Shown in pieces: positions 2,590 to 64,000 of a stretch of DNA of 64,000 bases; positions within the stretch are counted from its first letter, which is position 1; every line of letters starts with the position of its first letter. Origin of the DNA: Planctomycetaceae bacterium (GTDB taxonomy: Bacteria; Planctomycetota; Planctomycetia; Planctomycetales; Planctomycetaceae). A program made the translations under genes and the position numbers. Under the pieces are notes generated by a model that made no database searches, was not told the origin of the DNA, and was given only the letters and a program-made list of their open reading frames with translations. The stretch is taken from NCBI GenBank assembly GCA_024742875.1, contig JANSXP010000013.1, positions 9,218 to 73,217 on the forward strand, written 5' to 3'.

Positions 2590-2653
2590 GACGTTCTGCT
2601 GGGCTGTTTGCCGCGTTGAAGACCAGGGAGGACCGCACTTCGCAGGACGGCCG

Positions 2654-5191
<2,538 letters not shown>

Positions 5192-5240
5192 TCAAGTGTG
5201 AGGCCGCTGTGAAATGCTGGTGCGGCGAGAGGCGGGAACG

Positions 5241-5561: not shown

Positions 5562-5686
5562 AGAAATTGAGGCGAGTGATCAGGACGGGCGAATGTCTGA
5601 CCGGGCGAGTGATGCCGGAGCCTGGCCTGACCGGCCCCCGCTACAGGCACAATGTGCCATGCCTGCATCAGGGTGTCTGTAACGCA

Positions 5687-6799
5687 TTAACGATTCTGAG
5701 ACAACGGCATAATGACGTAGGTGTACGAATCCTCCACGCGAAACACGGCCGCGTGTTCCGCGCTGATCAGCTGCAGTTCGACGAGCGTTTCCGGAGTCAG
5801 CACTTTCAGAAACTCGCCCACGTAGCGGGGATCAAAAGTGATGCGAATTTCTTCGTGATCGTATTCGATGGGAAGTTCAATCCGTGACTCGCCCACATCC
5901 TGAGCGCGACTGGCCAGCAGCAGTTTGGAATCACCAAAGACGAAGTCCACACCTCGGCTTTCTTCATCCGTAACAATCTGGGCCTGACGCACGGCCGAGT
6001 GAAATGAGCCACCCGTCAAATTGACCGTCACTTCTCCGGCCTTCGGAATGACGTCGCGGTATTTGGGGAAACGCCCCTCAACCAGACGGCTGTAAATCAC
6101 GCAGCGGCCAGTCCGCATGAGGACTTCGTTCTCACGCACCACCACGTCGACATACTCAGCATCATTGTCGATCGAACGCTCCAGCAGCCCCATTGCGCGG
6201 GTGGGGACCACGGTCGTCTTTTCCGGAGCCACCGGACTGCCTTCGGTTTCGCAGGCGGCGGTGGCCACGGCCAGACGACGACTGTCTGTGGCGGCCGCCG
6301 TGATGGTGCCTTCTTCAAATTCCAGACGCAGCCCGCCCAGAGCATACCGTGTGCTCTCGACGTCCGTGGCGAAGACCGTGCGACGGATCATCTGACGAAA
6401 GCTGGCGGCCGGAATCTTGAAGTAGTCGGATTCATCAAACTCCGGCACCGGAGGGAAGTCACGGGCGTCTTCCGAGGAAAGCCGGAACTGACTGCCAGCC
6501 GCATTCAGACGCAGCGTCTGCTCCTCCACTTCAATGTCAAAATCCGCACACTGCAGTTCCCGCAGAATCGAAGACACTCGGTTGGTGGGCAGCAGCGCCT
6601 CCCCGGTGGACGTGGTGGTAACGCCATCCACCGCATATCGAATGGCGACTTCCTGATCAGTGCCAACCAGTTCCACACCGCTGGACCCCACATGCATGTA
6701 AACGTTTCGCAGAACGTCTTTGGGAGTCCGCGCGGGAACGGCCGAAGCGGCCGCCTGGAAGGCGGCAGAAAAGAGGGCTCGGTCACAAGTCAGCTGCAT
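5687..6799 (-). CDS. dnaN: DNA polymerase III beta subunit (sliding clamp)
   Basis: 370-aa ORF with ATG at 6797-6799. Length fits a three-domain clamp, and the sequence pattern is typical of DnaN (LLPTNRV, EGRFPKYRDVIP, C-terminal VIMPLS). Sits just upstream of the DUF721-gyrB pair. Confidence 0.94.
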   Translation of the reverse strand: MQLTCDRALFSAAFQAAASAVPARTPKDVLRNVYMHVGSSGVELVGTDQEVAIRYAVDGVTTTSTGEALLPTNRVSSILRELQCADFDIEVEEQTLRLNAAGSQFRLSSEDARDFPPVPEFDESDYFKIPAASFRQMIRRTVFATDVESTRYALGGLRLEFEEGTITAAATDSRRLAVATAACETEGSPVAPEKTTVVPTRAMGLLERSIDNDAEYVDVVVRENEVLMRTGRCVIYSRLVEGRFPKYRDVIPKAGEVTVNLTGGSFHSAVRQAQIVTDEESRGVDFVFGDSKLLLASRAQDVGESRIELPIEYDHEEIRITFDPRYVGEFLKVLTPETLVELQLISAEHAAVFRVEDSYTYVIMPLSQNR

Positions 6800-7250
6800 A
6801 ATTTGTTACTCAAATCTTCCTTTGCGGCCCGCACATCAAGGTCTCACAGGCCGGCAAATCTTCGTGCCTTTTCAAGCGCTCCAGCATAACAGAATGGGCC
6901 CCGTTTTGCAGCGGGAGACAGTCGCCAAAACCCTTAAATTTCAAGGGTTCACAGCCTGATTTCACCCATGCTGCGGGACCACGAAATCCGTCGCCGATCA
7001 GGGGTCGACCGTCGCCCGGAAATTACCATCGGGTCCCTACGGAAAAGCCGCACGGCCAGGCGGCCTGCCCGACTTTCAAACCGGCAGCCAGCAGGGCACT
7101 TCAGTCAAAGCAAAGGGGGAGTCGGCAGGTCGGAGTTGGCGCAGAGGGCTATCAAAGTTCTGTCAGAGCCCGGCAGGTCGCGTGCCATGATCCGAGGACA
7201 CCCCGCATGGGCCGTTCGCCTCAGCCGGATGCAGCCAGACGGACACCCAA

Positions 7251-19651: not shown

Positions 19652-19794
19652 AGCAAATCTGATCCAAAGAGAAAAGGTTGGCGACCGAGGTGGGGGGCTC
19701 CAAGCGTAACGCAGCGGCGTGAGAAACTCCAGATACCGTGTCAACACCGACGATTCGATCATCGCAACGGAAAAAACGATGCGATGAATACGAG

Positions 19795-44976: not shown

Positions 44977-46899
44977 CTACTGTCCGGCCGCACCTTCGCC
45001 TGCGCGGCTGATGTAGGCGAGGATTTCGAGGATCTCTTCCCGCGTAAATTTGTCCAGCAGCGCTTTTGGCATCATCGAGGTACTGGAGGGAATGATTTCC
45101 TCGATGTTGTCCTTCATGATCACCTTCGGCTCTTTGGCTTCCGGATTTTCCAGCAGCGAAATCGATTTCTTGTCTTCGGCTGTGACAATGCCCGAGGTGG
45201 GTTTGCCGTCCAGATCAATCACCATCTTCACCGCGTATTTGGGCTCGATGCGATAGCTGGGCTCCAGAATCTCCCGCAGGATACCATAGTGATCGCCCTT
45301 CCAGCGTTTGGCCACATCCGTCAGTTCCGGACCGACCGCACCGCCCTGACCATTCATCTTATGACAACCCAGACAGGTGGCTTCTTTGAACAGTCGCTCA
45401 CCCAGCGACGTGGGTGCGGAAATTGAGGTCTTGATGGTCTGTTTGTCAAAATCGTCGAGCTTCCAGTTCTGCACCAGCTTGCGGGTATTGCCCAGCGGAT
45501 CTTTGGGCTCCACCGGATTGCGCTGCCACTCATCCAGATCGGGCACCACCACCATCACGCCATACATCCTCATCCAGTGTCGTGGGAACGTGCACACATA
45601 CGGATACTCGCCGGGCTCGGTGGGCGCCGTAAATGTCAGCAGCTCCCGACTGCCGGCATTGACCATCGTGGTGGCAAACAGCACGTCGGAAGAGTTGGGC
45701 ACGTACAGTTTGCCGTCCAGCCCGGGTGTGGTGCCCAAAGCGGCGCCCTCCAAAGCCACATTCTTCAGCGTTCCTGTTTTGGTAATCACCAGGTTGTGCG
45801 GCATCAGGTCTTCATTCTCCAGTACCACCTGCACGGGACGCCCGGCTTCCACAGCAAAGTACGTTTTGTCGTACCGCATTTCTTCTTCCACCGTGTGCAG
45901 TCGCACCACCCGCACGACAACCTCCTGCAGACGTTTGCGAAAGGCTCGCGCGTCGTCTGCCGGCAGCCGGGCCAGCAACTCATCGGCCAGCTGCATGGCA
46001 TCCAGAAATTCGTTGGTGGTCCGCTTTGCGGCCGGAGTGGCTTCTGCAATTTTGACGAGCACGTTCGTCAGCGACTTTGCCGCCGCAACGGGTCGCTGAG
46101 CGGCCGGGATTTTGAGCAAACTGCGAACGGCGGGCGTCCGCAGCGCCTCCTGGGAGACCAGATCGGCCAAACGCTCAAACGTGTTTTCCCGGGCGACGCC
46201 AAAGGTGGCCATGGTGCGAATCGCGGCTGCCCGCACGGCAACATCCTGATCATCCGCCAGACAGGACACCACGTTGTCTCGCAGAGAATCCCGGAGGTCC
46301 CCTGCCGGCACCAGCGACACAGCCGCCAGATAAGAGACCCGTGCGTCAGCAGACACCTGCGCCTGCTGCCAGGCCTCGGCGGCTTCTCCCGCGACAATCA
46401 TGCCGGCAAATCCGGTGGACTGCAGCACACCGCTGGCCGACATAGCCTGCTTGAGTTCTTCCAGACGGCCGGTCAGCACGTCTTTCGGCTGACTGAGCAA
46501 AATGGCGGACAGCTGACGTCCGACACGCTGCTCCTCTTTGTCCTCGCCATCCAGCGACTCCAGGGCGACGAGCAGCTCGGTTGCCACATCCGTTTTGTTG
46601 ATGGCGACCAGTCCGGCCAGCGCCTCATCGCGATTCTGACGCGACAGGCCCGACCGCAGCAGGATAGCTTTGAAGACCGGCAGATACTTGACGTCGTCCG
46701 TCTTTGTTTCCACCAGCAGCAGTCGCGCGTTGTCCAGTCGCTTCAGCTGGTACTCCACAATGCGGGCGCTCTTGTCCAGATAGACTTTGGGGCGTTCCAC
46801 TTCACCATGATCGTGGCTTTGCGCCATGGCGAGGCGCGGGGTGGCCACAGCGACAAACAACAGACTCAGCAACAGACGGCGGAAAAACAAACACTTCAT
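44977..46899 (-). CDS. HEAT-repeat / azurin-like cupredoxin / cytochrome c protein (split paralogue, C-terminal module)
   Basis: 640-aa ORF with ATG at 46897-46899 and signal MKCLFFRRLLLSLLFVAVATPRLAMA. HEAT-like repeats, a cupredoxin (HNLVI ... YVCTFPRHWMRM) and haem site CLGCH. The C-terminus aligns by eye with the C-terminus of the 14738..19651 protein. Confidence 0.88.
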   Translation of the reverse strand: MKCLFFRRLLLSLLFVAVATPRLAMAQSHDHGEVERPKVYLDKSARIVEYQLKRLDNARLLLVETKTDDVKYLPVFKAILLRSGLSRQNRDEALAGLVAINKTDVATELLVALESLDGEDKEEQRVGRQLSAILLSQPKDVLTGRLEELKQAMSASGVLQSTGFAGMIVAGEAAEAWQQAQVSADARVSYLAAVSLVPAGDLRDSLRDNVVSCLADDQDVAVRAAAIRTMATFGVARENTFERLADLVSQEALRTPAVRSLLKIPAAQRPVAAAKSLTNVLVKIAEATPAAKRTTNEFLDAMQLADELLARLPADDARAFRKRLQEVVVRVVRLHTVEEEMRYDKTYFAVEAGRPVQVVLENEDLMPHNLVITKTGTLKNVALEGAALGTTPGLDGKLYVPNSSDVLFATTMVNAGSRELLTFTAPTEPGEYPYVCTFPRHWMRMYGVMVVVPDLDEWQRNPVEPKDPLGNTRKLVQNWKLDDFDKQTIKTSISAPTSLGERLFKEATCLGCHKMNGQGGAVGPELTDVAKRWKGDHYGILREILEPSYRIEPKYAVKMVIDLDGKPTSGIVTAEDKKSISLLENPEAKEPKVIMKDNIEEIIPSSTSMMPKALLDKFTREEILEILAYISRAGEGAAGQ

Positions 46900-47011: not shown

Positions 47012-49702
47012 TTACAGATTTTCCAGATGACGCATGGTTTCATCCAGCGTGTACTGCAGATAGCGATCGACATCACCTTCCAGCACATCCAGCGCCACCT
47101 CGATGGCGTCTTCGCCAAAGAAGCTGCAGGCTCGCACGGCTTCCAGACGCACTCGCGGATGATCATCACCAATGCGTTCGCCAATCAGCTCCAGAGCATT
47201 GGGCAGCTTGTGACGCATGTCGCACGCAATTCGCGTGGCGGCGCCACGGCAGTGATAATCCTTCGCATTGAGGGCCGCATTCAGCAGATCAGTGTCCACC
47301 ACATTGTGAGACTGCAGCACCCAGCAGGCTTCCAGGATGTTGTGCTCGTACAACTCGTCGGATTTATCAAGGCCGGCCGTCCATTTGCCCACGGCCGCCA
47401 CCACATCTTCCGTGGCACGTTCAGCCAGTTCACGACGGGCTCGATAACGCGTGCGGTCTTCGTACTCTGTCAGGGCATCCAGCACAGACGGAATCGGCTC
47501 ACCAGCCACAGCAGGCGCCTTGACCAGCGGACGGTCCTTACAAATGACACGCCAGATACGACCATGCTGATGGTCGCGGTTGGGTTCTCGCAGGTTGTGC
47601 TGCAGGTGACCGATCAGCGCCTGGTGCCAGTCGCAGATATACAGCGTGCCATCGGGAGCAAACTGAATATCGATCGGTCGGAAGTTGCCGTCCTCGCAGA
47701 ACACCAGGGCCGGCTTCTCTTTGCCCTCAAAACCGCTGCCCGCTTCTTTCATGCTGTGCTGCAGAATCGATCGATCGCCGATCACGTTGCACAGCAGGAA
47801 ATCGCCCTGATCTTCGGGCTTGAAGTGCCGACTGCTGATGATCTCGTTGCCGGCTGACGGACGCGTGCGTTTGACAATAAACTGCGGATAGACGTTGCGA
47901 CCTCGCAGCGCCGTGTCCTTGAAGTTGTTCACGCTGTCGTTGAACGATCCGCCGGCGTGCTTGGCCGGATACTCCACTTTGCCGCTGATCGGCGTGGCCC
48001 AGTAGTTGAAGCCAGGCGACGCGTCGGAAATGAAGTCCTGACCCCACTTGTCGTAAACGTGACCCCATGGGTTGGCAAACGGCAGTGACACGTGTGTGCC
48101 AAAGTGTTCGGTACGCGGGTTGTACCGCCACACGCCCGCTTCATGCATGCGGGTCAGACCATAAGGACTTTCGACCTGCGAATACTTAAACGTGCCTTCA
48201 TTGAAATACAGTGATCCGCCAGGGCCCCACTCGAAGGCTGAGATGCCGTGGTGAGAGTCGGCACTGTCAAAGCCAACCAGTTTGCGAATGCGGACATCGG
48301 CCACGTCGTCGCCGTCCGTATCTTTCAGGAACAGGATATCGGGCTGCTGAGCCACATAGGCGCCCCCGTTGCCGATTTCAAAACCGGTCGGCTGATGCAG
48401 GCCTTCGGCAAAAACGGTGCACTTATCTGCTGTGCCGTTGCCGTCTTCGTCTTCCAGAATGATGACTTTGTCATTCAGCTCGCCCTTGGGCTGCCAGTGC
48501 GGATACGACTGCATGGTCGAAACCCACAGTCGGCCTTTGTTGTCAAAGTTCAGCGACACCGGGTTGGCCAGTTCGGGAAACTGCTCTTCGGAGGCCACCA
48601 GCTGAATCTCGTAGCCGGGCGCCAGCTTAAACAGCTTCTGCTGCTCGGCCGCCGGCAGGTAATCCAGTGATCCCAGCTTGCCGCGCTTGCGGTTGGGGTC
48701 ATCGTCCCCGCCCACATTCGTCACGACTTCCAGAAACGGCAGCGTGTTGCTGTCATCACATTTGTCAGCCACGGTTTCACCGGCCGCCAGAGCCCACACG
48801 CGCTTGTCACGGTTGGCTGTCATCTGATCGAGAATGGTGCGTTCCCGCTCCATTACGTCGCGGTTGTTGTACTTGCCGTCGCCCGTCTTGCCAGCCAGAC
48901 CACGCTTGCCATAAATCGAGTAGCCGTTGACCGCACGATAGCGGTGCCACCAGTGGAAATTCTTGTCGGCCAGTTCGGCCATCAGAGATTCGGAGGGCTC
49001 CCCGGCTGCCGGCGTGCCGCCCAGCGCTTCCATCAGAATGGGAGCCAGCGCCTTGTAACCGTCATCATTGAGATGAGAACCATTGAGCGTCAGCTGTTTG
49101 TCCGTGCTTTCGAACAGCGCCTTCGTGGGCGTGTAGATGTCGGCAAACGCAACGCCCGTGTCTGCGGCCACCTGCTTCAGTGCGGCCGTGTATTTGGCCA
49201 GGTCCTGATTCTGCTGTGTTCCGTCGGTCACATTGGGATCACCAATGTCCTCAAACGCGATGGGAGAAATCAGAGCGATGCGTGGCGCCGATTTGCCGTT
49301 GTACTTTTTGCCCTGCGTTTCCTTCACCAGTCGCGCCATGTCTTTGGCGAACTGGCTGACACCGTCGTCACCGTCGAACGACTCATTGAAGCCAAAGAAG
49401 AACAGAATCACGTCCGCTTTGCTGTGGGTCAGGTGGCTGTCGGGATCACCAAAGTCCAGCGAGCGAATGCGCTCGTACGGCTCATCGCCAGGGAAACACA
49501 GATTGCGAATCGTCAGCTGCAGTTCCGGATAGGTTTGGTGCAGCAGCGCTTCACAGTGATTGTGATGCTGCATCCGCTCACCCAGTTCGTTGCCCACCAG
49601 ACACACGCGGTCGCCCGGCTGCAGTTCAAGGTCCGCAACAGAAGAAGAAGGAACAGACACGACGGTGAGCACCGTCAGCAGCGCAGCGGTCAATAGCCTC
49701 AT
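47012..49702 (-). CDS. SGNH/GDSL hydrolase / membrane-bound-dehydrogenase-like / HEAT protein (split paralogue, N-terminal module)
   Basis: ORF 47012..49747 (GTG) trimmed to ATG at 49700-49702, preceded by GAGGA, giving the signal MRLLTAALLTVLTVVSV. The GDSL-like region (CLVGNELGERM, FFGFNES), the propeller-like region and the C-terminal HEAT region all align by eye with the N-terminal about 900 aa of the 14738..19651 protein. Confidence 0.9.
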   Translation of the reverse strand: MRLLTAALLTVLTVVSVPSSSVADLELQPGDRVCLVGNELGERMQHHNHCEALLHQTYPELQLTIRNLCFPGDEPYERIRSLDFGDPDSHLTHSKADVILFFFGFNESFDGDDGVSQFAKDMARLVKETQGKKYNGKSAPRIALISPIAFEDIGDPNVTDGTQQNQDLAKYTAALKQVAADTGVAFADIYTPTKALFESTDKQLTLNGSHLNDDGYKALAPILMEALGGTPAAGEPSESLMAELADKNFHWWHRYRAVNGYSIYGKRGLAGKTGDGKYNNRDVMERERTILDQMTANRDKRVWALAAGETVADKCDDSNTLPFLEVVTNVGGDDDPNRKRGKLGSLDYLPAAEQQKLFKLAPGYEIQLVASEEQFPELANPVSLNFDNKGRLWVSTMQSYPHWQPKGELNDKVIILEDEDGNGTADKCTVFAEGLHQPTGFEIGNGGAYVAQQPDILFLKDTDGDDVADVRIRKLVGFDSADSHHGISAFEWGPGGSLYFNEGTFKYSQVESPYGLTRMHEAGVWRYNPRTEHFGTHVSLPFANPWGHVYDKWGQDFISDASPGFNYWATPISGKVEYPAKHAGGSFNDSVNNFKDTALRGRNVYPQFIVKRTRPSAGNEIISSRHFKPEDQGDFLLCNVIGDRSILQHSMKEAGSGFEGKEKPALVFCEDGNFRPIDIQFAPDGTLYICDWHQALIGHLQHNLREPNRDHQHGRIWRVICKDRPLVKAPAVAGEPIPSVLDALTEYEDRTRYRARRELAERATEDVVAAVGKWTAGLDKSDELYEHNILEACWVLQSHNVVDTDLLNAALNAKDYHCRGAATRIACDMRHKLPNALELIGERIGDDHPRVRLEAVRACSFFGEDAIEVALDVLEGDVDRYLQYTLDETMRHLENL

Positions 49703-49905
49703 TGGGATCCTCAAAATGAATTCTGGATTGGTCGCCGAAGTCAGCACTCGGCAACATCAGCCACAGCGAAACTCAGCATCCTTCAGGCATTCAGAACCGA
49801 CAGGCGGGGGGTTCTGCGTCCTGAGTCAGGTGGGAACGCTAAATCATGTCAATTGCCGGTGCGAGTGTCTTGTGGAAATCTGTCGGTTTTTAGTAATTAT
49901 CAGAC

Positions 49906-53087: not shown

Positions 53088-53948
53088 ATGAATCGCTCGA
53101 TTACCGCTGTTGCTGTGGCCGGACTGTGTGTGCTGATCACGGCGGGAGCGGTTGCCCAATTTGGAGGCGGACGCCGCTACGGACGGGGCAGAGCCGACTA
53201 TGATCCCGATATCCGGCCTGACCGAGCCGGCACGCCGGACTGGAAAGTGGATACGAAGTTCCGGGACGATGTCTTTACGTTCTGCCGCATTCGCTACCGC
53301 AGCTATTCGCGGTGGAACAAATGGGCGACCGACTACCCGGACGCAGACATCAACTTCAGTTATCGCCTTCAGCAGCTGACGTCACTGCACACACATCCAG
53401 ACGGCATCATTCTGGAACTGACCGACCCACGGCTGTTCGACTATCCGTTTATCTACATCATCGAGCCAGGGGATCTGGCGTTTTCAGACGCTGAAGTCAC
53501 CGCGCTGCGAAGTTATCTGCTGAATGGCGGCTTTTTGATGGTGGACGACTTCTGGGGTCAGTACGAACTGGACAATTTTCTGTCCGAAATGAAGCGCGTT
53601 TTTCCCAAGCGAGAAGCGACCGAAATTCCGCTGGAACACCCGATCTTCCACTGTGTGTATGACCTGAAGGAACGTCCTCAGATTCCTGCGCTGGGTCGCG
53701 CTCATCCCAATTACCGTGACAGCAGCGGGCGGCTGATTACCTGGGAAGGCGGTACGGACACAGAGGATCCCCACTATCGGGGACTGTACGACGACAACGG
53801 ACGCATGATGGCCATCATCTGCCACAACACCGACCTGGGCGATGGCTGGGAACGTGAAGGGGAGGACGAATGGTACTTCAAAGAGTTTTCCGAAAAGAAA
53901 GCCTACCCACTGGGCATCAACATTGTGTTTTACGCCCTGACCCACTGA
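53088..53948 (+). CDS. DUF4159 domain protein
   Basis: 286-aa ORF with ATG at 53088 and a signal peptide. FTFCRIRY...WATDYPDADINF...YPFIYIIEPG...LRSYLLNGGFLMVDDFWG is the DUF4159 pattern, and the gene has the typical position at the head of a MoxR/Bat cluster. Confidence 0.68.
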   Translation: MNRSITAVAVAGLCVLITAGAVAQFGGGRRYGRGRADYDPDIRPDRAGTPDWKVDTKFRDDVFTFCRIRYRSYSRWNKWATDYPDADINFSYRLQQLTSLHTHPDGIILELTDPRLFDYPFIYIIEPGDLAFSDAEVTALRSYLLNGGFLMVDDFWGQYELDNFLSEMKRVFPKREATEIPLEHPIFHCVYDLKERPQIPALGRAHPNYRDSSGRLITWEGGTDTEDPHYRGLYDDNGRMMAIICHNTDLGDGWEREGEDEWYFKEFSEKKAYPLGINIVFYALTH

Positions 53949-54090: not shown

Positions 54091-55176
54091 ATGACATCAC
54101 CTGAAGAGAATGTCGACCTGCCAGACGGCCAGGCCGAGGCGAATCCGGCTGGCGAAGTTTCTGATGAACTCACGCCGGAGCGTGAACGGGAATTGATTGA
54201 CCAGCTGCGTTCGCTGCGGGGCGACATCGACAGCGAACTGTCGAAGGTCATCATTGGCCAGAAAGACGTGGTGGAGCAACTGCTGATTTCACTCTTGTCA
54301 GGTGGGCACTGCCTGATCACGGGAGCACCGGGTCTGGCCAAAACACTGCTGGTGAATTCGATCGCGCAGCTGTTTGATCTGCAGTTCAACCGGATCCAGT
54401 TTACCCCCGACCTGATGCCGGCCGACATCACGGGCACAGAAGTCCTTGAAGAGGAGAACGGCCAGCGAAGCATGCGGTTTATCCCGGGCCCCGTGTTTGC
54501 GAACGTGCTGCTGGCCGATGAAATCAACCGTACGCCGCCCAAAACCCAGTCCGCGCTGCTGGAGGCCATGCAGGAACACCAGGTCACCGCCGCCGGTCAG
54601 GTGCGCAAGCTGGATGAGCCGTTCTTTGTGCTGGCCACACAGAACCCCATCGAAATGGAGGGCACCTATCCGCTGCCCGAGGCACAGCTGGACCGTTTTA
54701 TGTTCAACGTGCTGATTGATTACCTGCCTGAAGACGATGAAGTGGCCGTGGTGCAGCAGACCACCTCAAAACGCAAAGAGAAGGTGCGATCCCTGTTTTC
54801 CGGCGATCTGATTCCCGAGCTCAATCAGGTGGTGCAGAGAGTTCCCATCGCCGAAGAAGTCGTGCGGTACGCGGTGAGGCTGGCTTCGGCATCACGACCA
54901 GGTCAGTCAGGCACGCCCGAATTCATCAACGAACTGGTGTCCTGGGGGGCCGGGCTTCGAGCCGCCCAGAATCTGGTGCTCGGTGGCAAGGCGCGAGCAC
55001 TGCTGGACGGCCGGCCGTACGTTTCCACGACCGACATTCAGGCGCTCGCTCAGCCGGTCCTGCGGCATCGTATCCTGCCCAACTATCGGGCGGAGGCCGA
55101 GGGCGTAACGACCGAAGCGCTGATTGCCCGGCTGCTGACGCACGTTGAGCATCCCAAACAGGAGGCCGTTGCGTGA
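54091..55176 (+). CDS. MoxR-family AAA+ ATPase
   Basis: 361-aa ORF. Walker A GAPGLAKT, Walker B LLADEINR, sensor region ATQNPIEMEGTYPLPEAQLDRF. Confidence 0.93.
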   Translation: MTSPEENVDLPDGQAEANPAGEVSDELTPERERELIDQLRSLRGDIDSELSKVIIGQKDVVEQLLISLLSGGHCLITGAPGLAKTLLVNSIAQLFDLQFNRIQFTPDLMPADITGTEVLEEENGQRSMRFIPGPVFANVLLADEINRTPPKTQSALLEAMQEHQVTAAGQVRKLDEPFFVLATQNPIEMEGTYPLPEAQLDRFMFNVLIDYLPEDDEVAVVQQTTSKRKEKVRSLFSGDLIPELNQVVQRVPIAEEVVRYAVRLASASRPGQSGTPEFINELVSWGAGLRAAQNLVLGGKARALLDGRPYVSTTDIQALAQPVLRHRILPNYRAEAEGVTTEALIARLLTHVEHPKQEAVA

Positions 55177-56090
55177 GCACTGCCGACGCATCCGCAAAGT
55201 CCGGTGGATCGACGTTCATGGATCCCAAAGTGGTCATGAGCATCAAGTCGCTGGAGTTGCGCGCGAAGGTGGTGGTGGACGGATTTCGCACGGGGCTGAA
55301 CAAGAGCCCGAAGCACGGTTTCTCGGTCGAATTTTCAGAATACCGCCAGTACGCCCGCGGGGATGATCCGCGATTCATCGACTGGAAACTTTACGCCCGG
55401 ACAGACCGCAGTTACATCCGCCTGTTTGAGGATGAGACCAACCTGCGCTGCTATGTGGTGTCGGACTTCAGTCGTTCCATGGCCTTCGGGTCGGTGGGTT
55501 TCACCAAGCATGACTACGGCCGCACCATTGCCGCCTCTCTGGCGTGGATGCTGAATCGCCAGGGGGATGCGGTGGGGCTGTCCGTGTTTGATGAGCGGGT
55601 GCGCAGTGTTGTGCCGGCGCGGTATCGTCCCGGACAGCTGCGTCAGATTATGGTGAATCTGGAGCAGCCGGTCAGCGGCCAGGACACCAATCCGGAAGTG
55701 GCACTGGAGCACGCGGCCCGCCGGCTGAACAAGCGGGGCTTTGTGGTGCTGATCAGCGATCTGCTGGCCCCCGTGGAGCAGGTGGAGGCCGGATTAAAAC
55801 TGCTGCGTGGCTGTGGACACGATGTGGTCGTGTTTCAGGTACTGGATCCGGTGGAACTGAATCTGGCGATCGACGGACCACGACTGTTTGAGGATCTGGA
55901 GACGCGTCAGAAAATCTACGCGGACCCCGCCCATGCGGCCGGCGATTTCGTCAGACAGATAGAGGCACACAACGCAGACGTGCAGGCCGTGTGCGAAAAA
56001 TTGGGGGCGTCGTTCGAACGGACGGTCACCAGTCAGCCACTGGAACTGGTGCTGTCCGGGTTCCTGCATGCCCGGAGGGCCGGTCGATGA
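55173..56090 (+). CDS. DUF58 domain protein (vWA-like, MoxR partner)
   Basis: 305-aa ORF whose GTG at 55173-55175 overlaps the MoxR TGA (GTGA). DUF58 motif EYRQYARGDDPRFIDWK. Confidence 0.82.
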   Translation: MSTADASAKSGGSTFMDPKVVMSIKSLELRAKVVVDGFRTGLNKSPKHGFSVEFSEYRQYARGDDPRFIDWKLYARTDRSYIRLFEDETNLRCYVVSDFSRSMAFGSVGFTKHDYGRTIAASLAWMLNRQGDAVGLSVFDERVRSVVPARYRPGQLRQIMVNLEQPVSGQDTNPEVALEHAARRLNKRGFVVLISDLLAPVEQVEAGLKLLRGCGHDVVVFQVLDPVELNLAIDGPRLFEDLETRQKIYADPAHAAGDFVRQIEAHNADVQAVCEKLGASFERTVTSQPLELVLSGFLHARRAGR

Positions 56091-56130
56091 GCGACACACA
56101 GGGCCGGCACAGTTCAGGGGGGCGTGATTG

Positions 56131-58269
56131 ATGGAGTTTCTCACGCCCCTGTTTGCTGCGATTGGCGCAGCGGCGGCCGCCGTGCCGGTCGTGCTGCACA
56201 TGCTGCGACGCGCGCCCACGCAGGACATGCCGTTTAGTCTGGTCCGCTTCCTGAAGCCATCGCAGCCGAAACTGACGAAACGCTCAAGCATCGAACACTG
56301 GCCGCTGATGCTGCTGCGAATGCTGGCGCTGGTGCTCATCGGTCTGGCCTTTGCCAGACCCTTTCTTCGACACGTTGTTTCGCTGGCGGGAGATGAACGC
56401 GCCATGCGTTCGCTGACCATTCTGGTGGACTCCAGCGCCAGCATGCGTCGAGATGGACTTTACGAGCAGGTGCAGGAAGCCGTGAAACAGGTCGTGGCGG
56501 ATCTGCGGCCGGACGACCTTCTGAGTGTCGCCACATTTTCGGCCGCCACCCGCACTGTCATCAGCCGCGACGACTGGCTGGCCGCCAGCGATGGCGAACG
56601 TACGGCGCTGGTGGACGCATTTCTGGCCGACTGGGAGCCGGACTGGAACGCTACCAACACGGGGCAGGCGATGAGAATCGCCGCCGATGAACTGGCCGCG
56701 GAGAACGCCGATCGTCCCAATATCACGCAGCGACGACTGATCGTCATCACCGACTTTCAGCGAGGCAGTGATCTGAACGAACTCAAGACAGGACAGTGGC
56801 CGGACAGCATCGAGGTGGATCTGAAAGTGGTGGAGCCTCTGGAGAAAGGCAACGCCGGACTCACATTTCTGCCGGACCGGCGTCTGGATCGCATGCGTGT
56901 GCGGCTGATGAGTGCCGGCGACACGGTCAGGCAGGACTACCGTCTGCAGATGCAAAATAAGGACGGTCAGAATGTGGGTGAGCCTGTGGCCGTGACGGTA
57001 CCGCCTGGTCAGCGGCGATCTGTGGTACTGCCAGCCGCTGACAGGGATTCCGGCGAAGTGGTCGCCATGGTGGGCCTGCTGGGCGATGATCACATGTTTG
57101 ACAACTGGGTTGACCTGCCGGCCGCCAGCAGTCCGATTGTGACTGTCGCCCACATAGGTTCGGCTACGAGGAACGACCCCGAGTCCATGCGGTACTATCT
57201 GCAGCGCGTGCTCAGCGGCAACGATGAGCGAGACGTGCGACTGGTCGATCTGATCAAACAGGACGGCGTCGTTCTGCCGGTGCCAGCGGACGCCGCACTG
57301 GTGGTTGCAACGGACGCGATCCCGCCGTCACTGATGAAGTCTGTGGAAGAGTTTCTGTCCCGCTCCGGCACACTGCTGCTGGCTCCGCCGGATGTGGCGG
57401 CCGTGAAATCACTGGGCGATTTGCTGCCGCCGGAGTTCACCGTTGAGGAGGCAGACATCGAAGATTATGCCATGCTGGGCACGCTGGATTATGAGCACCC
57501 GCTGCTGAGTGTCTTTGCCGAGTCGCGATTTGCCGACTTTTCCTCGATTCGCTTCTGGCATCACCGCCGCCTGGAATTTTCTCAGGAAAACCGCACCCAG
57601 GGTGACTGGTCCGTCATCGCACGTTTTGACACCGGACTGCCGGCGATTGCCGAAATTCGCGCGGAAGACACGGGCCGAATTTTCCTGCTGGCCGCCGGCT
57701 GGCAGCCGGCTGACAGTCAGCTGGCACTGTCCACCCGCTTTCCTCCGCTGCTGACCCGCGTGCTTTCGCTGGCCGCTCCCGTGCAGCGTGATCAGCTGGT
57801 GGCCACCGTGGGAGACAAAATTCGCCCCGGCACCCTGGTCTCAGCAGCCCGCTGGACACTCACCGGGCCCGACGAGCGAACCCTCACGACCGACGAACTG
57901 CGTGATGAACAGAATCCGGATGACGAGCCGGTCGTACAGCTGCAGACACCCGGCCGGTATCTGCTCGAAGGCGTGGCCGAGGACGGCAGCGAGCAGTCGC
58001 TGGTACTGATCGCCGGCATTGCCGCCAGTGAATCGCAGACGGAAACACTGCCGATCGGACAACTGCAGGCCCTGCGAATCGGGGTGGAATCCAATCTGCC
58101 GGGCAGCGAGGCGACCGATTCGGAGGACGAAACGGCGACCGGACAGCTCAGCGCAAATGAACTGGAAGACCGGCAGAAATGGTGGCGGCGAATGCTGCTG
58201 GCCGGTCTGGCCTGTCTGGCACTGGAAGCCGTCTGGGCCCGACGACTGGAACAAAAGGCGGCCGCTTGA
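56131..58269 (+). CDS. BatA-type N-terminal double-TM domain / vWA protein
   Basis: ORF 56128 (TTG) moved to ATG at 56131. MEFLTPLFAAIGAAAAAVPVVLHML is the BatA N-terminal pattern. MIDAS-like VDSSASM and a C-terminal TM helix (MLLAGLACLALEAVW). Confidence 0.78.
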   Translation: MEFLTPLFAAIGAAAAAVPVVLHMLRRAPTQDMPFSLVRFLKPSQPKLTKRSSIEHWPLMLLRMLALVLIGLAFARPFLRHVVSLAGDERAMRSLTILVDSSASMRRDGLYEQVQEAVKQVVADLRPDDLLSVATFSAATRTVISRDDWLAASDGERTALVDAFLADWEPDWNATNTGQAMRIAADELAAENADRPNITQRRLIVITDFQRGSDLNELKTGQWPDSIEVDLKVVEPLEKGNAGLTFLPDRRLDRMRVRLMSAGDTVRQDYRLQMQNKDGQNVGEPVAVTVPPGQRRSVVLPAADRDSGEVVAMVGLLGDDHMFDNWVDLPAASSPIVTVAHIGSATRNDPESMRYYLQRVLSGNDERDVRLVDLIKQDGVVLPVPADAALVVATDAIPPSLMKSVEEFLSRSGTLLLAPPDVAAVKSLGDLLPPEFTVEEADIEDYAMLGTLDYEHPLLSVFAESRFADFSSIRFWHHRRLEFSQENRTQGDWSVIARFDTGLPAIAEIRAEDTGRIFLLAAGWQPADSQLALSTRFPPLLTRVLSLAAPVQRDQLVATVGDKIRPGTLVSAARWTLTGPDERTLTTDELRDEQNPDDEPVVQLQTPGRYLLEGVAEDGSEQSLVLIAGIAASESQTETLPIGQLQALRIGVESNLPGSEATDSEDETATGQLSANELEDRQKWWRRMLLAGLACLALEAVWARRLEQKAAA

Positions 58270-58297: not shown

Positions 58298-61200
58298 ATG
58301 ACGGGAACATTTCTGGAACGCAGCCTGCAGCTGGTCGCCCAGCGACTGCACAAGCTTCGAATCCTCCGGCGGCAGGCGCTGTGCTGGATGCTGCTGCTGG
58401 TTCCCGCAATGGCCGCTGCGCTGTTGCTGCCGCCATCGACCGGCTTTCTGTCTGCGGAACTGTTTCTGCTGCTGGGCGTGACGGTGATGGGTCTGTGGAT
58501 GGCGCGGTGGCGGCTGCCCGAACCCTCTGCAATCGAAACGGCGCGACTGGTAGAGAAAAGTCAGCCACAGCTGAACGATGCGGTGATCACGGCCGTTCAG
58601 GCGGACGCCCGTACGCGTTCCAGTGACCGCGCGTCCGTGATGGATGAATGGGTCATCGATGAAGCCGACAAACTGGCTCGGGGTTCCAACTGGTCCGGCG
58701 TCATTCCCGGCCGCCAGATGCTCACATGGTCCTGCCTGAGCTTTCTGGGATTCTGTTTTCTCGTCACCAGTGTGGTGGCCGCCGGCCGCTGGGGCCGGGA
58801 CGTGCGGCCGTTTTCTGACCGGCCGCCACTGGAGGCGGCCCCCGGCGAATCGCTGCTGCAGGCGGCCGAGCTGACGGTGGAACCAGGCGATGTGGAAATC
58901 GAACGCGGCACCGCGCTGACCGTCGTGGCTCGCTTTGGCAGCGGCATTCCGGCAACCAGCGTTCTGGAAGTCACCACAGCGGCCGGCACGGCGAATTACG
59001 TCATGGCGCCTACCGTGGACGACGGCGTCTTTGCCGCCAGTATACCCAGTGTGGACAGCGACGGCAGCTACCGCGTGGTGTTTGGTCAGAGTGATGATGC
59101 CGTGCAGCGATTTTTGTCAGCCGCAGATTCGCCGACTGAGACCGCGGACGCTTCGCAGCCCTATCGCATCGCCACCTATGTGCGTCCCCGGGTTGACCAG
59201 GTGGATGCTGTCATTACGCCACCGTCCTACACGGGTAAAGAGCGGCAGACTGTGGAGGACACACTCCGCGTCACGGCGGTGGAGGGTTCGGATGTTGAGT
59301 TTCGCATTCACGTCAATAAGCCCGTGGCCGCTGCCGAACTGATCACCGAAGACGATGCCGTGCTGCCGCTGGATCTGACGGGCGGAGAACCGGGTGTGGT
59401 GACAGCTCACGTGACGGCCGAGACATCACAAAAGTACCGCATCGCTTTGCGCGACGAAGCTGGTCGCACGGCGGCAGAACAGACCACCATTTCGCTGAAA
59501 GTCACCCGTAATCAGCGGCCGAAAATCAAAGTCACTTTCCCCGGACGTGACACGAATGTCTCGCCTTTGCAGGAGTTTCAAATTGAAGCGGAAACGGCGG
59601 ATGACTTTGGTGTGGCGGAATTCGGCGTGCGGTATTTTCTGAGCAATGGACGGGCGGGCGAAGTGATTCTGGAACCAGCCGGTGAGACGGATGCTCCCGG
59701 ACCTGTCACAAAGCGAACAGCCGCCCACACCATTCTGCTGGAAGAGCTGGAAGCCGAGCCCGATCAGCTGCTGACGTATTCGTTCTATGTGAAGGACTTC
59801 GGGCCGGATGGCAGTCTGAGAACGACCAGCGGAGACATGCAGCTGGCCGAGGTTCGCCGCTTCGAGGAAATCTTTCGGGAATCGGCTCAAAACGGACAGC
59901 AGCAACAACAACAGCAGCAACAACAGCAACAGGGTCAGCAGGGACAACAGGCCGCAGCCGAAAAACTGATGCAGCTGCAGCGGGAAATTCTGGTGGCCAC
60001 GTTCAACACGGGCCGCACTCTGGCCGAGGCCAGTTCGCGAGAATCCATCAGGTCGCAAACCCAGGAAGACGTGGAGGTCATCACGCAGTCTCAGCAGCAG
60101 GCCCTGGACCAGCTTCTGGAACAAAAGCAGGAAGCGGCCGACCCGGAGTCTTTGCAGCTGATGGGCGAGGTGGAAGGTGCCATGGATGCCGCTTTGACAG
60201 CGCTGGGTGTTCTGCAGGAGACCCTCAGTGATGAAGCCGTGCAGTCCGCTCTGGCGGCCGAGCAGACGGTGCTGGCGGGGCTGATGAAGCTGCGAGCGCG
60301 GGAATTTGAAGTTCAGCAGCAGCAGCAACAACAACAACAGGGGCAGGGACAGGGCCAAAGTCAGGCCTCGCGACAACAGATGCAGCAGCTGGAACTGAAA
60401 AACGATCAGCAGCGTTATGAGTCGCAGCGAGAAGCGCAGGAACAGCAGGAACAGAATGCGGCGGGGAGTGAAGATCTGCAGATTCTCAATCGCCTTAAGG
60501 AACTGGCACGCCGGCAGCAGATGCTGAATGAGCGACTAAAGCAGCTGGAGTCAGAATTGCGAGCTGCCCGCACGGATGAAGAGAAAGAAGAAATTGAACG
60601 GGAGCTCAAACGGCTGCGGGAAGAACAAAGAGATCTGCTGCGAGACGTGGATGAACTGCGGGAGACGATGGACAATCAGTCCACCGAGCAGCAGCAGCAG
60701 AATCAGGAAACTCGCCAGCAGGTGGACGAAGCGCGAGAACGCGTGCAGCAGGCCTCGCGGGCGATGGATGAAGGCAAGCTGTCGGAGGCCATTTCCGAAG
60801 GCACGCGTGCGGAGCGGGAATTTGAAGACCTCGAAGAAACCTTTCGCCAGCAGACAGCCAGCCAGTTCAGCGATGCGATGAAAGACCTGCGACAGCAGAC
60901 CCGCGACATGCAGGAAACACAAAAAGAGATTGCCCGTGAATTGGCCGGGGAATCCGCCACGCCCGAGGTGCAGGGTGGTCCGCCGTCGCTGCGGACCTCG
61001 GATGACCGGGACGATCTGCAGCAGAAAGTGGCTCAGCAGCGTGACGATCTCGAACGCGTGCTCGAGCGAGCCAAAGAACTGGTGGAGCAGGCCGAAGAGA
61101 GTGAACCGCTGCTGTCACGTCGGCTGTACGATACCGTGCGGGATGTGCGGGAGAAGAAACCGGAGACCGCGCTGGAGGCGACCGAACTGCTGGTCGGCCG

Positions 61201-62386
61201 AGGGCTGTATGAACAGGGGCAGCAGGCGGAACAGGTCGCCCGGGAAGGCGTCAACGAATTGGCGCGAGGCATTGAAAACGCGGCGGATGCCGTCCTGGGC
61301 AGTGAAGAAGAATCTCTGCGACGCGCGCAGCGGGAACTGGAGAGTCTGACCGAGCAGTTGTCCTCCGAAATCGCCGAAGCCACAGGTCGTAGTCCTGAAC
61401 AGCCCGCCACGGACGAGCCGGAGACGGACGCACCACCACGGCAGGCCATTCAGCGAGCACCGCGACAGTCGGACCAGGAACGAGCGGCCGAACGCCAGCC
61501 GGGTGAAGGTCAGCAGCCGGGTGAAGGTCAGCAGCCGGGTGAAGGTCAACAACCGGGTGAAGGTCAACAACCGGGTGAAGGACAACAACCGGGTGAAGGA
61601 CAACAACCGGGTGAAGGTCAACAACCGGGACAGGGTCAACAACCGGGTGAAGGTCAACAACCAGGTGAAGGCCAGCAACCGGGACAGGGTCAACAACCGG
61701 GTGAAGGACAACAACCGGGTGAAGGTCAACAACCGGGTGAAGGTCAACAACCGGGTGAAGGTCAACAACCGGGACAGGGTCAACAACCGGGTGAAGGACA
61801 ACAACCGGGACGTGGGCAACAACCGGGACGTGGGCAACAACCGGGGCAGGGGCAACAACCGGGGCAGGGGCAACAGCCGGGACGTGGGCAACAGCCGGGA
61901 CGTGGGCAACAACCGGGGCAGGGGCAACAACCGGGGCAGGGGCAACAGCCGGGTAGCGGCAATCGGCAGGGAAACTCTTTTCTGATGAATGGAGGTCGCG
62001 AATCCGTCAACGGTGGACCTGGCAATCCAGGCGGTCGTCCGCTCACCGGCGACGATTATCGGGAATGGTCGAACCGCATGCGAGAAGTCGAAGAAATTCT
62101 GGATGATCCCGAACTGCGCAACCAGGTGGCCCAGGTCCGGGACCGCGCCCGCGCAATCCGCGCTGAATTCCGTCGCCACGGCAAAGAACCCAAATGGGAT
62201 CTCGTGCAGTCAGAACTTCTGGAGGAACTGCAGGACCTGCAAAGCCGCATCAACCAGCAGATTTCACGGATCAGCAGTGACCGTTCGATGGTCCCCATCG
62301 ATCGGGAGCCGGTCCCTGAGGAATTTGACGAACTGGTGCGGCGCTACTACGAACTTCTGGGACAAAGCCAGGGAGCCGACGAATGA
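58298..62386 (+). CDS. Giant Q-rich coiled-coil membrane protein (DUF4175-like position in the Bat cluster) with hexapeptide repeat array
   Basis: 1362-aa ORF with ATG at 58298 and AGGAG 8 nt upstream. Two N-terminal TM helices, a beta-rich region of about 450 aa, two poly-Q tracts, a long E/R/K/Q coiled-coil-like region, 25 PG[EQR]GQQ units and a conserved-looking C-terminal ~130 aa. Confidence 0.85.
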   Translation: MTGTFLERSLQLVAQRLHKLRILRRQALCWMLLLVPAMAAALLLPPSTGFLSAELFLLLGVTVMGLWMARWRLPEPSAIETARLVEKSQPQLNDAVITAVQADARTRSSDRASVMDEWVIDEADKLARGSNWSGVIPGRQMLTWSCLSFLGFCFLVTSVVAAGRWGRDVRPFSDRPPLEAAPGESLLQAAELTVEPGDVEIERGTALTVVARFGSGIPATSVLEVTTAAGTANYVMAPTVDDGVFAASIPSVDSDGSYRVVFGQSDDAVQRFLSAADSPTETADASQPYRIATYVRPRVDQVDAVITPPSYTGKERQTVEDTLRVTAVEGSDVEFRIHVNKPVAAAELITEDDAVLPLDLTGGEPGVVTAHVTAETSQKYRIALRDEAGRTAAEQTTISLKVTRNQRPKIKVTFPGRDTNVSPLQEFQIEAETADDFGVAEFGVRYFLSNGRAGEVILEPAGETDAPGPVTKRTAAHTILLEELEAEPDQLLTYSFYVKDFGPDGSLRTTSGDMQLAEVRRFEEIFRESAQNGQQQQQQQQQQQQGQQGQQAAAEKLMQLQREILVATFNTGRTLAEASSRESIRSQTQEDVEVITQSQQQALDQLLEQKQEAADPESLQLMGEVEGAMDAALTALGVLQETLSDEAVQSALAAEQTVLAGLMKLRAREFEVQQQQQQQQQGQGQGQSQASRQQMQQLELKNDQQRYESQREAQEQQEQNAAGSEDLQILNRLKELARRQQMLNERLKQLESELRAARTDEEKEEIERELKRLREEQRDLLRDVDELRETMDNQSTEQQQQNQETRQQVDEARERVQQASRAMDEGKLSEAISEGTRAEREFEDLEETFRQQTASQFSDAMKDLRQQTRDMQETQKEIARELAGESATPEVQGGPPSLRTSDDRDDLQQKVAQQRDDLERVLERAKELVEQAEESEPLLSRRLYDTVRDVREKKPETALEATELLVGRGLYEQGQQAEQVAREGVNELARGIENAADAVLGSEEESLRRAQRELESLTEQLSSEIAEATGRSPEQPATDEPETDAPPRQAIQRAPRQSDQERAAERQPGEGQQPGEGQQPGEGQQPGEGQQPGEGQQPGEGQQPGEGQQPGQGQQPGEGQQPGEGQQPGQGQQPGEGQQPGEGQQPGEGQQPGEGQQPGQGQQPGEGQQPGRGQQPGRGQQPGQGQQPGQGQQPGRGQQPGRGQQPGQGQQPGQGQQPGSGNRQGNSFLMNGGRESVNGGPGNPGGRPLTGDDYREWSNRMREVEEILDDPELRNQVAQVRDRARAIRAEFRRHGKEPKWDLVQSELLEELQDLQSRINQQISRISSDRSMVPIDREPVPEEFDELVRRYYELLGQSQGADE
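59897..59950 (+). repeat. CAG/CAA tract encoding Q12-G-QQ-G-QQ
   Basis: An in-frame run cagcagcaacaacaacagcagcaacaacagcaacag followed by ggtcagcagggacaacag. Confidence 0.9.
60314..60364 (+). repeat. CAG/CAA tract encoding Q9 then GQGQGQSQ
   Basis: An in-frame run cagcagcagcagcaacaacaacaacag followed by gggcagggacagggccaaagtcag. Confidence 0.9.
61499..61966 (+). repeat. 25 tandem 18-bp units plus 1 degenerate unit encoding PG[E/Q/R]GQQ
   Basis: Units were counted directly: ccgggtgaaggtca(g/a)ca(g/a) and variants. By type: 14 E, 3 Q (ggacagggt), 4 R (ggacgtggg) and 4 Q (gggcagggg). 61805-61876 and 61877-61948 form a 72-bp higher-order repeat with a single synonymous difference. Confidence 0.97.
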
Positions 62387-64000
62387 TGCGGCTGCCTCAG
62401 ATCGCCACATTTGTGGCAGGTGATCCGCAATGGAGTCTGCCGGCCCTTGCGATCGGAGCGGGCGGTGTCCTGCTGGCCGTCTGGCTGGGCGGGCGGCGTC
62501 AGTCCGCGCTCAGGATCGCCACCGCGTGTCGCGTGGCGGGCTGGCTGCTGATCTGCGCGTGCCTGGTCAATCCTCTGTGGAGCAGCGCTCGCCCCCGCAA
62601 AGGGGCCAACGTTCTGGCCGTTGTCACCGACGCCAGCCGCAGCCACCTGGTGGCGGTCGAAGACGGCGTCACCCGCAGCGACCGCTTCGCCGATCTGCTG
62701 AATGCGGGCGAAAGCCGCGAAGCCAATGGCTGGCTCAATCGAATCGAACAGGATTTTGAACTGCAGCGTTACCTGGCCGGCGACCGACTGCAGCGCGTCG
62801 ACAACTTTGAACAGCAGGAATTTCAACTGCCTGCATCCAACATCTGCACAGCACTGGAGCAGTTGCAGCAGCGTTTTGAGGGACAGCCACTGGCCGCTGT
62901 CGTGCTGCTTTCAGACGGTAATGCCACAGACAGCTTTGAGTCTCTGGACTCCCTGAAAACCCTGGCGCCCGTCTATCCGGTCATCCTGCCAACGGAAAAT
63001 TCGGCAGCAGATGTGGGAATCGGAGCTGTTACCGTCAACCAAACGGCCTTCGACGACGCGCCTGTCACCATTGCCGTGCAGACGCGTCAGGTGGGTGCCG
63101 AGGGACGAAACGTCAAACTGACGCTGCTCGACCAGGACCGCACACCGCTGATGACCAAATCGCAGGCGGCCGATGCCGATTCCACGGTCCGTTTTCAGGT
63201 GCGGCCCGAAACGGGCGGCACAGTGTTCTACCATGTCCGCGTGGACCTGCTGGATGAGAACGATGAGCCGGTCGCTGAGGAAGCCACCACCATCAACAAT
63301 GAACGGATGGTGGCCGTGGACCGGGGGAGCGAAAAACGCCGCGTGCTGTATGTTTCCGGACGGCCCAACTGGGAGTTCAAGTTTCTGCGACGGGCTGTGG
63401 AAACTGACCCACAGACCGATCTGGTGGGATTGATTCGCATTGCCCGCCGCGAAGCCAAATTTGACTTTCGCGGACGGGAGGGAGAATCGTCCAACTCTTT
63501 GTTTCGTGGCTTTGATGAAACCGAACAGGAACTGGCCGAAGAATACGACGAGCCGGTGCTGATCGGACTGGGCACCAAAGACGACGAACTGGACGGTGGC
63601 TTTCCCGAAGACGCCGAAGAGCTGTTTGCCTATGACGCGCTGATCGTTGACGATCTGGAAGCCCGATTCTTCACGGCCGATCAGCTGCAGCTGATTTATG
63701 AGTTTGTGGCCAAACGCGGGGGCGGATTTCTGATGATGGGCGGGCAGGAGTCGTTCCGCCAGGGACAGTACGACCGCACGCCGATCGGCGAATTGCTGCC
63801 CATTGATCTGCATCGGGATGTGGCCGCTCCGACGGGCCCGGTACGCATGAGCCTCACGCGCGATGGCTGGCTGCAGCCCTGGATTCGCCTGCGGTCTGAT
63901 GAAGCGGCGGAAACAACCCGCCTGGATCAGATGCCCGAGTTTCTCACGCTCAATGCCACCAGCTTTATTCGCCCCGGAGCTGTCGTGATGTCAACCGTCC
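62383..64000 (+). CDS. Membrane-anchored vWA-like / glutamine-amidotransferase-like Bat-cluster protein (3' end outside window)
   Basis: Missing from the supplied ORF track because it has no stop in the window. ATG at 62383 overlaps the previous TGA (ATGA). I translated the frame by hand and it stays open to 64000: MMRLPQIATFVAGDPQWSLPALAIGAGGVLLAVWLGG ... VLAVVTDASRSH ... VVLLSDGNATD ... VLYVSGRPNWEFKFLRRAV ... GGGFLMMGGQESF. Confidence 0.72.
   Translation, partial: MMRLPQIATFVAGDPQWSLPALAIGAGGVLLAVWLGGRRQSALRIATACRVAGWLLICACLVNPLWSSARPRKGANVLAVVTDASRSHLVAVEDGVTRSDRFADLLNAGESREANGWLNRIEQDFELQRYLAGDRLQRVDNFEQQEFQLPASNICTALEQLQQRFEGQPLAAVVLLSDGNATDSFESLDSLKTLAPVYPVILPTENSAADVGIGAVTVNQTAFDDAPVTIAVQTRQVGAEGRNVKLTLLDQDRTPLMTKSQAADADSTVRFQVRPETGGTVFYHVRVDLLDENDEPVAEEATTINNERMVAVDRGSEKRRVLYVSGRPNWEFKFLRRAVETDPQTDLVGLIRIARREAKFDFRGREGESSNSLFRGFDETEQELAEEYDEPVLIGLGTKDDELDGGFPEDAEELFAYDALIVDDLEARFFTADQLQLIYEFVAKRGGGFLMMGGQESFRQGQYDRTPIGELLPIDLHRDVAAPTGPVRMSLTRDGWLQPWIRLRSDEAAETTRLDQMPEFLTLNATSFIRPGAVVMSTV

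Follow-up and report, generated by a model that had tools for sequence, protein, structure and literature searches.

A tandem array of 25 units encoding the hexapeptide PG[E/Q/R]GQQ lies within a membrane-protein gene of a Planctomycetaceae bacterium (assembly GCA_024742875.1, contig JANSXP010000013.1, forward-strand positions 9,218 to 73,217; this whole stretch of 64,000 nucleotides is the window, and coordinates below refer to it). We interpret the array as the expanded core of a disordered Gln/Gly/Pro-rich tether, most probably periplasmic, that leads from a helical stalk to the C-terminal domain of a DUF4175-family protein, and we give this interpretation a probability of roughly 0.7. As a soluble, flexible spacer in an inner-membrane protein, the tether would join the stalk to a C-terminal helical domain that is small and conserved. 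Selection would act on composition and flexibility (P-G-x-G-Q-Q, where x is E, Q or R) and not on a fixed length or sequence. Tether length would drift rapidly as in-frame 18-bp units are gained or lost by slipped-strand mispairing or unequal recombination, the most recent event probably being a 72-bp duplication. The array would then be a lineage-specific amplification of a PGxGQQ motif that close relatives hold in 1-8 copies.

An in-frame hexapeptide array and its host protein

The host gene and its parts are as follows.

58298..62386 (+): host gene for a 1362-amino acid (aa) membrane protein of the DUF4175 family (open reading frame; PF13779; 156 homologues, best 75% identity)
58370..58789 (+): N-terminal membrane region, with a hydrophobic hairpin at residues 25-69 and a third transmembrane (TM) helix at 141-164 (hydropathy)
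58868..59854 (+): tandem immunoglobulin (Ig)-like beta-sandwich domains, residues about 191-519 (AlphaFold2 predicted local distance difference test, pLDDT, above 90; Foldseek)
59861..61384 (+): long helical stalk, residues about 522-1029 (AlphaFold2)
61406..62029 (+): predicted disordered linker containing the array, residues 1037-1244 (model 868-1075; pLDDT 29-38, no secondary structure)
61499..61948 (+): tandem array of 25 units, residues 1068-1217 (Tandem Repeats Finder, unit parsing)
61499..61804 (+): block 1, units 1-17, comprising 14 PGEGQQ and 3 PGQGQQ (units 8, 11 and 16), net charge -14
61805..61948 (+): block 2, units 18-25 in the order R R Q Q R R Q Q, net charge +4
61949..61966 (+): degenerate unit 26, PGSGNR, which runs into the conserved NSFLMNGGRE motif
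62057..62362 (+): conserved C-terminal helical domain, residues about 1254-1355 (pLDDT 90 and above)

The array is regular at both the DNA and the peptide level. Parsed in the frame of the host gene, it consists of exact 18-bp units (14 PGEGQQ, 7 PGQGQQ and 4 PGRGQQ), the count of 25 being the copy number as assembled. Tandem Repeats Finder reports a period of 18, 25.3 copies, 88% matches and a score of 499. Positions 1-58000 of the window hold no other array scoring 60 or more, which places this one far beyond chance. Block 1 units read GGT-GAA-GG[T/A/C] or GGA-CAG-GGT, while those of block 2 read GGA-CGT-GGG or GGG-CAG-GGG, the GGG in fourth position marking a unit lineage distinct from that of block 1. 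Block 2 comprises two 72-bp super-units (61805-61876 and 61877-61948) whose sole difference, A vs G at offset 17, is a synonymous CAA/CAG change.

Variation among the units spares the peptide. The 25 units represent nine DNA types, and outside codon 3 all five variable sites are synonymous third-codon positions, while none of the 10 first and second positions varies (0/10). This synonymous-only variation indicates purifying selection on the P-G-x-G-Q-Q peptide in the sense frame. The array is composed of Q57, G50, P25, E14 and R4; it lacks Tyr, Thr and Ser and is bounded by conserved flanks (PRQAIQRAPR upstream and NSFLMNGGRE downstream). Two further open reading frames overlap it, one antisense (61115-62179 (-), 354 aa) and one in the +1 frame (61503-61985 (+), 160 aa); we regard neither as a gene and both as by-products of the stop-free repeat. 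The sense frame is taken as coding because it is conserved in all homologues and because variation there is synonymous. Skew peaks across 60001-62000, at 0.397 for AT and 0.154 for GC (elsewhere about 0.16 or less), reflecting the purine-rich codons (CAA/CAG/GAA) with which the coding strand specifies the Gln/Glu-rich stalk and linker.

Profile searches relate the host protein to DUF4175 at some distance. The Pfam DUF4175 profile (PF13779) matches residues 279-484 at 34.3 bits (cut-off 27.3) over only positions 165-359 of 825, and one homologue (P0002) is named 'DUF4175 family protein' by NCBI. TIGR02302 ('aProt_lowcomp', NCBIfam) matches residues 286-441 weakly (17.7 bits, E = 8e-4), far below its curated cut-off of 394.3. 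The partial coverage and the low TIGR02302 score mark the protein as a distant planctomycete branch of the DUF4175/TIGR02302 relatives. A hydropathy scan shows a K/R-rich N-terminus followed, after TM3, by an acidic part of ~1200 residues; the whole protein has a net charge of -84. With the positive-inside rule, this suggests an N-in/C-out topology in which the C-terminal ~1200 aa lie outside the cytoplasm.

We modeled residues 170-1362 with AlphaFold2 from a 53-sequence alignment (mean pLDDT 75.9; model numbering offset +169). For the N-terminal part, Foldseek returned only generic tandem Ig-like and macroglobulin-like domain matches, and a profile search against PDB sequences found no match and hence no relative with a solved structure. 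The confidently predicted stalk and C-terminal domain bracket a segment with low pLDDT throughout, consistent with a flexible chain between two folded parts. The stalk also contains two poly-Gln or Gln-Gly tracts, one at its start (59894-59950, residues 533-551) and one inside it (60314-60358, residues 673-687); a long Q run at the site of the first appears in the consensus of the 53-sequence alignment as well, so that the position of this tract is conserved.

Much of the original prediction, which was made from the letters of the window, agrees with these results. Parsing reproduced every detail of the array as it had been described (25 units and a degenerate one, the order of unit types, two 72-bp super-units and seven PGQGQQ units). 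The proposed placement in an envelope protein fits an in-frame array downstream of a TM hairpin and a third TM helix predicted by hydropathy, and the disorder it had envisaged is what AlphaFold2 predicts for residues 1037-1244.

Linkers and arrays in related proteins

The linker varies greatly among relatives while its surroundings do not. We found 156 homologues, mostly from Planctomycetaceae and Fuerstiella metagenome-assembled genomes (MAGs), and in 156/156 the flanks are recognizable (roughly SEIAxATG upstream and SFLMxGGRE...PLTGD downstream). Between these flanks lie 14-239 aa that are always Q/G/S/P/E-rich and, when long, net acidic. Four homologues (P0014, P0032, P0034 and P0035) have nearly no linker (the shortest, 14-30 aa), and linker length therefore appears dispensable in evolution. 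Low complexity rich in Q/G/P occupies the position of the array in Planctomycetaceae, Pirellulaceae and Verrucomicrobiota, and tandem arrays at the linker site have periods of 4-26 aa. The nearest relatives carry one to four copies of PGxGQQ, and in the closest homologue (P0001, 75% identity) a 15-bp unit that encodes P[GD]GQQ is instead repeated ~24 times.

A scan of a genome collection with one genome per species, which held nothing closer than 58% identity to the host protein, yielded 27 related loci, and in many of these Tandem Repeats Finder shows in-frame arrays at the linker position. Their units differ from locus to locus, as in the following cases.

L005, Fuerstiella sp. F4-SAH-21: PGQGQQ-type x14, with one PGRGQQ and higher-order periods of 36-72 bp
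L020, Verrucomicrobiota MAG: degenerate [PS]GEGQQ x18 or more
L003, Planctomycetaceae MAG: PGQGQQ x4
L009, Planctomycetaceae MAG: PGQQ x14
L018, uncultured Pirellula sp. MAG: GEPQA x8
L028, MAG labelled Pirellula staleyi: GQPQ[DG] x18
L010, Fuerstiella sp. MAG: QQQSG x15

The C-terminal domain offers a wider view. A search with it found 752 cluster representatives (E-value up to 0.001), and it stands at the C-terminus in all of the 150 that were listed (150/150). Clear tandem arrays lie directly upstream of the domain in 27/210 surveyed homologues, with periods of 5-26 residues, and the window array is the longest and most homogeneous of them on the survey score (117). For example, P0092 (Maioricimonas rarisocia, 7.7-Mb contig) has QQPGNQQG x11 at the linker position. 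Its source names this protein 'Immunoglobulin G-binding protein A precursor', probably a mis-annotation set off by repeats and low complexity.

Judged by these comparisons, the window array is clearly one instance of a family habit, and a fairly ordinary one, the arrays of different homologues having arisen independently at a shared site. The linker had been called unusual in the original prediction; this does not hold, given that homologues show Q/G/P-rich low complexity and independent arrays, including PGQGQQ and PGEGQQ, at the same position. The prediction had also named two findings that would tell against it together, dispensability of the segment and a lack of comparable repeats in orthologues. 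The first is borne out as regards length by the homologues with 14-30 aa; the second is not, comparable repeats being common in orthologues.

This variety bears on whether the array has a regular fold. PG and GQ turns could stack into an elastic beta-turn spiral, a glutenin- or spidroin-like spring giving extensibility across the envelope. Seven units are exactly PGQGQQ, and the Pfam profile Glutenin_hmw (PF03157) matches the array, and nothing but the array, at 53.6 bits (cut-off 50; residues 1056-1222 to profile positions 441-620), as expected from the glutenin-like composition originally noted. Beta-reverse turns and a beta-spiral have been reported for the PGQGQQ repeats of high-molecular-weight (HMW) glutenin (PMC7795185), and the place between a long stalk and a terminal domain would be a sensible one for a spring. 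However, AlphaFold2 predicts no regular structure, the Tyr nonapeptides of glutenin are missing from an array made of Q, G, P, E and R only, and homologues use other periods and motifs (QQQSG, GEPQA, a 24-aa unit) or nearly lose the segment. The variety of units tolerated at the linker site argues against a specific spiral geometry, and we consider a spiral unlikely.

Charge patterning fares less well. The original prediction had proposed that a polarity from Glu to Arg units could drive self-association or phase separation, with the E block pairing with the R block within or between molecules. Block 1 does carry a net charge of -14 and block 2 of +4. Yet these charges are very unequal, and they sit in a protein that is strongly acidic overall. 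Across 52 homologue linkers, mean net charge by thirds is -2.9, -3.7 and -1.7, with no consistent acidic-to-basic order, and only 15/52 follow an acidic first third with a non-negative last third. In L005, moreover, the R/K units lie mid-array. We therefore reject a conserved charge gradient and hold charge-driven association to be highly improbable; the simplest reading of the array's polarity is that it records its latest duplication, that of the 72-bp RRQQ unit.

Metagenomes contain further arrays of the E type. The exact 26-nt junction between E units matched four contigs, three of which encode homologues with PGEGQQ arrays: L029 (at least 11 units), L031 (6814-6992, at least 9.9 units, the contig stopping inside the array) and L032 (4242-4377, 7.6 units). 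L031 and L032 are 99.8% identical over 4377 nt and differ in unit number, either because copy number truly varies between such similar genomes or because the assembly is uncertain. Contigs terminate inside arrays of three kinds, PGQQ in L009, GEPQA in L018 and PGEGQQ in L031, which demonstrates the assembly hazard directly. Unit number differs among relatives and such arrays break contigs, in keeping with the copy-number variation and assembly risk that had been anticipated. No record of the exact window protein was found, and the 24-nt array flank had no exact match in metagenomes. The array alone gave only four weak matches among 5.8 billion proteins, in a search where the HMMER composition correction suppresses such queries and which does not gauge rarity.

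The same observations raise the possibility that the array is an assembly artefact, or a purely neutral product of slippage free of constraint. Near-identical 18-bp units spanning 450 bp are hard for short-read assembly, and the three truncated contigs show related arrays to be troublesome. Against this, the array is in frame between conserved flanks, comparable arrays occur in large or complete records (the 7.7-Mb contig of P0092 and the complete chromosome of L019), and the synonymous-only variation at five sites points to purifying selection, leaving just the exact copy number uncertain. We regard this explanation as improbable.

A MoxR-vWA gene cluster and the weighing of function

The array-bearing gene belongs to a tightly packed cluster whose order is DUF4159, MoxR, DUF58, BatA-vWA, DUF4175 (the host, in fifth place) and GATase1-like. 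The neighbors are listed below.

53088-53948 (+): DUF4159 gene (Pfam)
54091-55176 (+): MoxR AAA_3 ATPase gene (Pfam)
55173-56090 (+): DUF58 gene (Pfam)
56128-58269 (+): BatA-N/vWA protein gene (Pfam)
62383..64000 (+): GATase1_like membrane protein gene with a double TM (BatA-like) and a DxSxS motif, running past the window end

Overlaps of 4 bp occur at two junctions of the cluster, including that at which the start of the GATase1_like gene overlaps the DUF4175 stop (ATGA); the DxSxS motif of the GATase1_like protein is DASRS at residue 83. The co-linear MoxR AAA_3, DUF58 and BatA-N/vWA genes identify a Bat/MoxR-vWA module. Gene order is as in the window at locus L001 and around the closest homologue, P0001, and the operon is conserved among planctomycetes. 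The DxSxS motif of the metal ion-dependent adhesion site (MIDAS) is kept in the co-encoded BatA-vWA and DUF58 proteins (DSSAS at residue 101 and DFSRS at residue 98), and the predicted topology puts the BatA vWA domain and the array on one side of the membrane.

The fourth contig matched by the E-unit junction, L030 (Ga0115002_10014205), encodes at 496-5202 a differently built protein of 1568 aa, whose N-terminus is signal-like and which has a long helical region rich in Ala and Glu. Its arrays are PGEG[QE]Q x28 and then PGEGQ x27. It has no DUF4175 match, and its C-terminal end, RRYFE, faintly matches RRYYE of the host protein (pairwise E = 0.004). Its gene lies immediately upstream of a MoxR gene (5380-6405) and a DUF58 gene (6489-7391) of its own. 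Counting this protein and the distant homologues together, PGEGQQ always recurs beside MoxR/DUF58/vWA genes.

One possibility is that the array is a multivalent acidic ligand, the Glu of PGEGQQ docking on the MIDAS of the co-encoded vWA proteins and MoxR remodeling the complex. The retained DxSxS motifs, the predicted location of the BatA vWA domain and the recurrence of PGEGQQ arrays beside MoxR-DUF58 modules, even in a protein as different as that of L030, all fit such docking. On the other hand, many homologue units have no acidic residue (PGGQQ, PGQGQQ, PGQQ, QQQSG), and in some homologues the linker is missing altogether. A ligand role is thus very unlikely. In a broader version, PGEGQQ would be a functional motif of MoxR-vWA envelope systems, as a Glu ligand for MIDAS or as a tuned entropic or elastic spring. 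Such a role would account for the sharing of one array by distant DUF4175 homologues (Planctomycetaceae, Verrucomicrobiota) and L030, and we likewise think it improbable. If PGEGQQ did interact with the vWA partners, it would provide a first handle on the function of the operon.

Several points weigh against the flexible, periplasmic tether that we prefer. Its topology is derived from a crude hydropathy scan. Low pLDDT fits disorder without proving it, and a regular beta-turn spiral would score low too. Misassembly could account for the different copy numbers of metagenomic contigs, and the motif might be more than filler, as hinted by the recurrence of PGEGQQ both in distant homologues and in the L030 protein. 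We found no literature on DUF4175 proteins of this operon type, and deletion of bat genes in Leptospira gave no clear phenotype (PMC3557215).

Outside the cluster, the window is a stretch of ordinary planctomycete chromosome that carries gyrB, pheT and PSCyt1/PSCyt2/PSD1 proteins. A protein of 1674 aa encoded at 14738-19762 (-) combines GDSL lipase, DUF7133, HEAT, PA14, Copper-bind and cytochrome c domains, and the same domain set is split between adjacent genes at 47012-49747 (-) (911 aa, GDSL-DUF7133-HEAT) and 44977-46899 (-) (640 aa, Copper-bind and cytochrome c). The single protein and the pair look like fused and unfused paralogues. At L001, too, a GDSL-DUF7133-HEAT gene is found upstream of the operon.

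Copy number probably varies at the array and assemblies probably break there, so that the array could serve as a strain marker and short-read assemblies across such repeats should be treated with caution. It also illustrates how a low-complexity linker can produce a spurious above-threshold Pfam match, here Glutenin_hmw, and misleading names for homologues. More generally, it offers a clean example of rapid repeat-unit turnover under compositional constraint, in a widespread and uncharacterized component of the MoxR-vWA operon.

Comparison with known systems

Several repetitive proteins resemble the array in composition. Spidroin and flagelliform silk contain Pro-Gly-Gln-rich penta- and hexapeptide tandem units (GPGQQ, GPGGX) that are linked to elasticity. 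The apparent resemblance extends to the PGGQQ units of P0001, but poly-Ala blocks and silk terminal domains are absent here. A collagen-like triple helix (Gly-X-Y) is rejected, since Gly occupies unit positions 2 and 4 and is thus spaced by 2 and then 4.

Wheat HMW glutenin (PF03157) shares with the array tandem PGQGQQ, in seven exact units, and a score above the Pfam gathering cut-off; in both, change in copy number is the main source of size variation (PMC7795185). The hallmark of HMW glutenin is, however, its interspersed Tyr nonapeptides, GYYPTS[PL]QQ, together with GQQ tripeptides in x-type subunits (PMC7795185). The array has no such nonapeptides and no Tyr, most of its units carry Glu or Arg, and its host is a bacterial membrane protein without the Cys-bearing N- and C-terminal domains of the storage proteins. 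The Pfam match stops at the array edges, beyond which lie the helical stalk and a bacterial C-terminal domain. We therefore reject homology with glutenin; the likeness is convergence in composition only.

Two bacterial tethers resemble the proposed arrangement in architecture. The TonB linker is likewise a low-complexity, proline-rich spacer that spans the periplasm from an inner-membrane anchor to a C-terminal domain (PMC5413942). It is a stiff polyproline-II rod of X-Pro dipeptides, whereas the array, with Pro at 1/6 and Gly at 2/6 of its residues, is predicted to be a flexible chain. Pfam finds no TonB_C domain in the host protein, and one Pro per six residues makes no X-Pro dipeptide run. 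TonB does offer a precedent for an acidic-then-basic order, an acidic (Glu-Pro)n run being followed by a basic (Lys-Pro)n run. The P/Q domain of E. coli ZipA is an intrinsically unstructured, flexible Pro/Gln-rich tether of ~100 aa that connects a membrane anchor to a C-terminal globular domain (PMC6904479, citing Ohashi et al. 2002). Unlike the array, it is cytoplasmic, is not Gly-rich, has no regular tandem array and belongs to an unrelated protein.

A further comparison is with the DUF4175/TIGR02302 family itself; AdvA, an A. baumannii division protein with a DUF4175 annotation, is unrelated (PMC7481262). Like members of the family, the host protein has Q/G-rich low complexity and a gene cluster of the MoxR/DUF58/BatA type, and the TM helices and extracytoplasmic C-terminal part predicted from hydropathy would be a further parallel. 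It differs from them in that its low complexity has been homogenized into 25 near-identical hexapeptide units.

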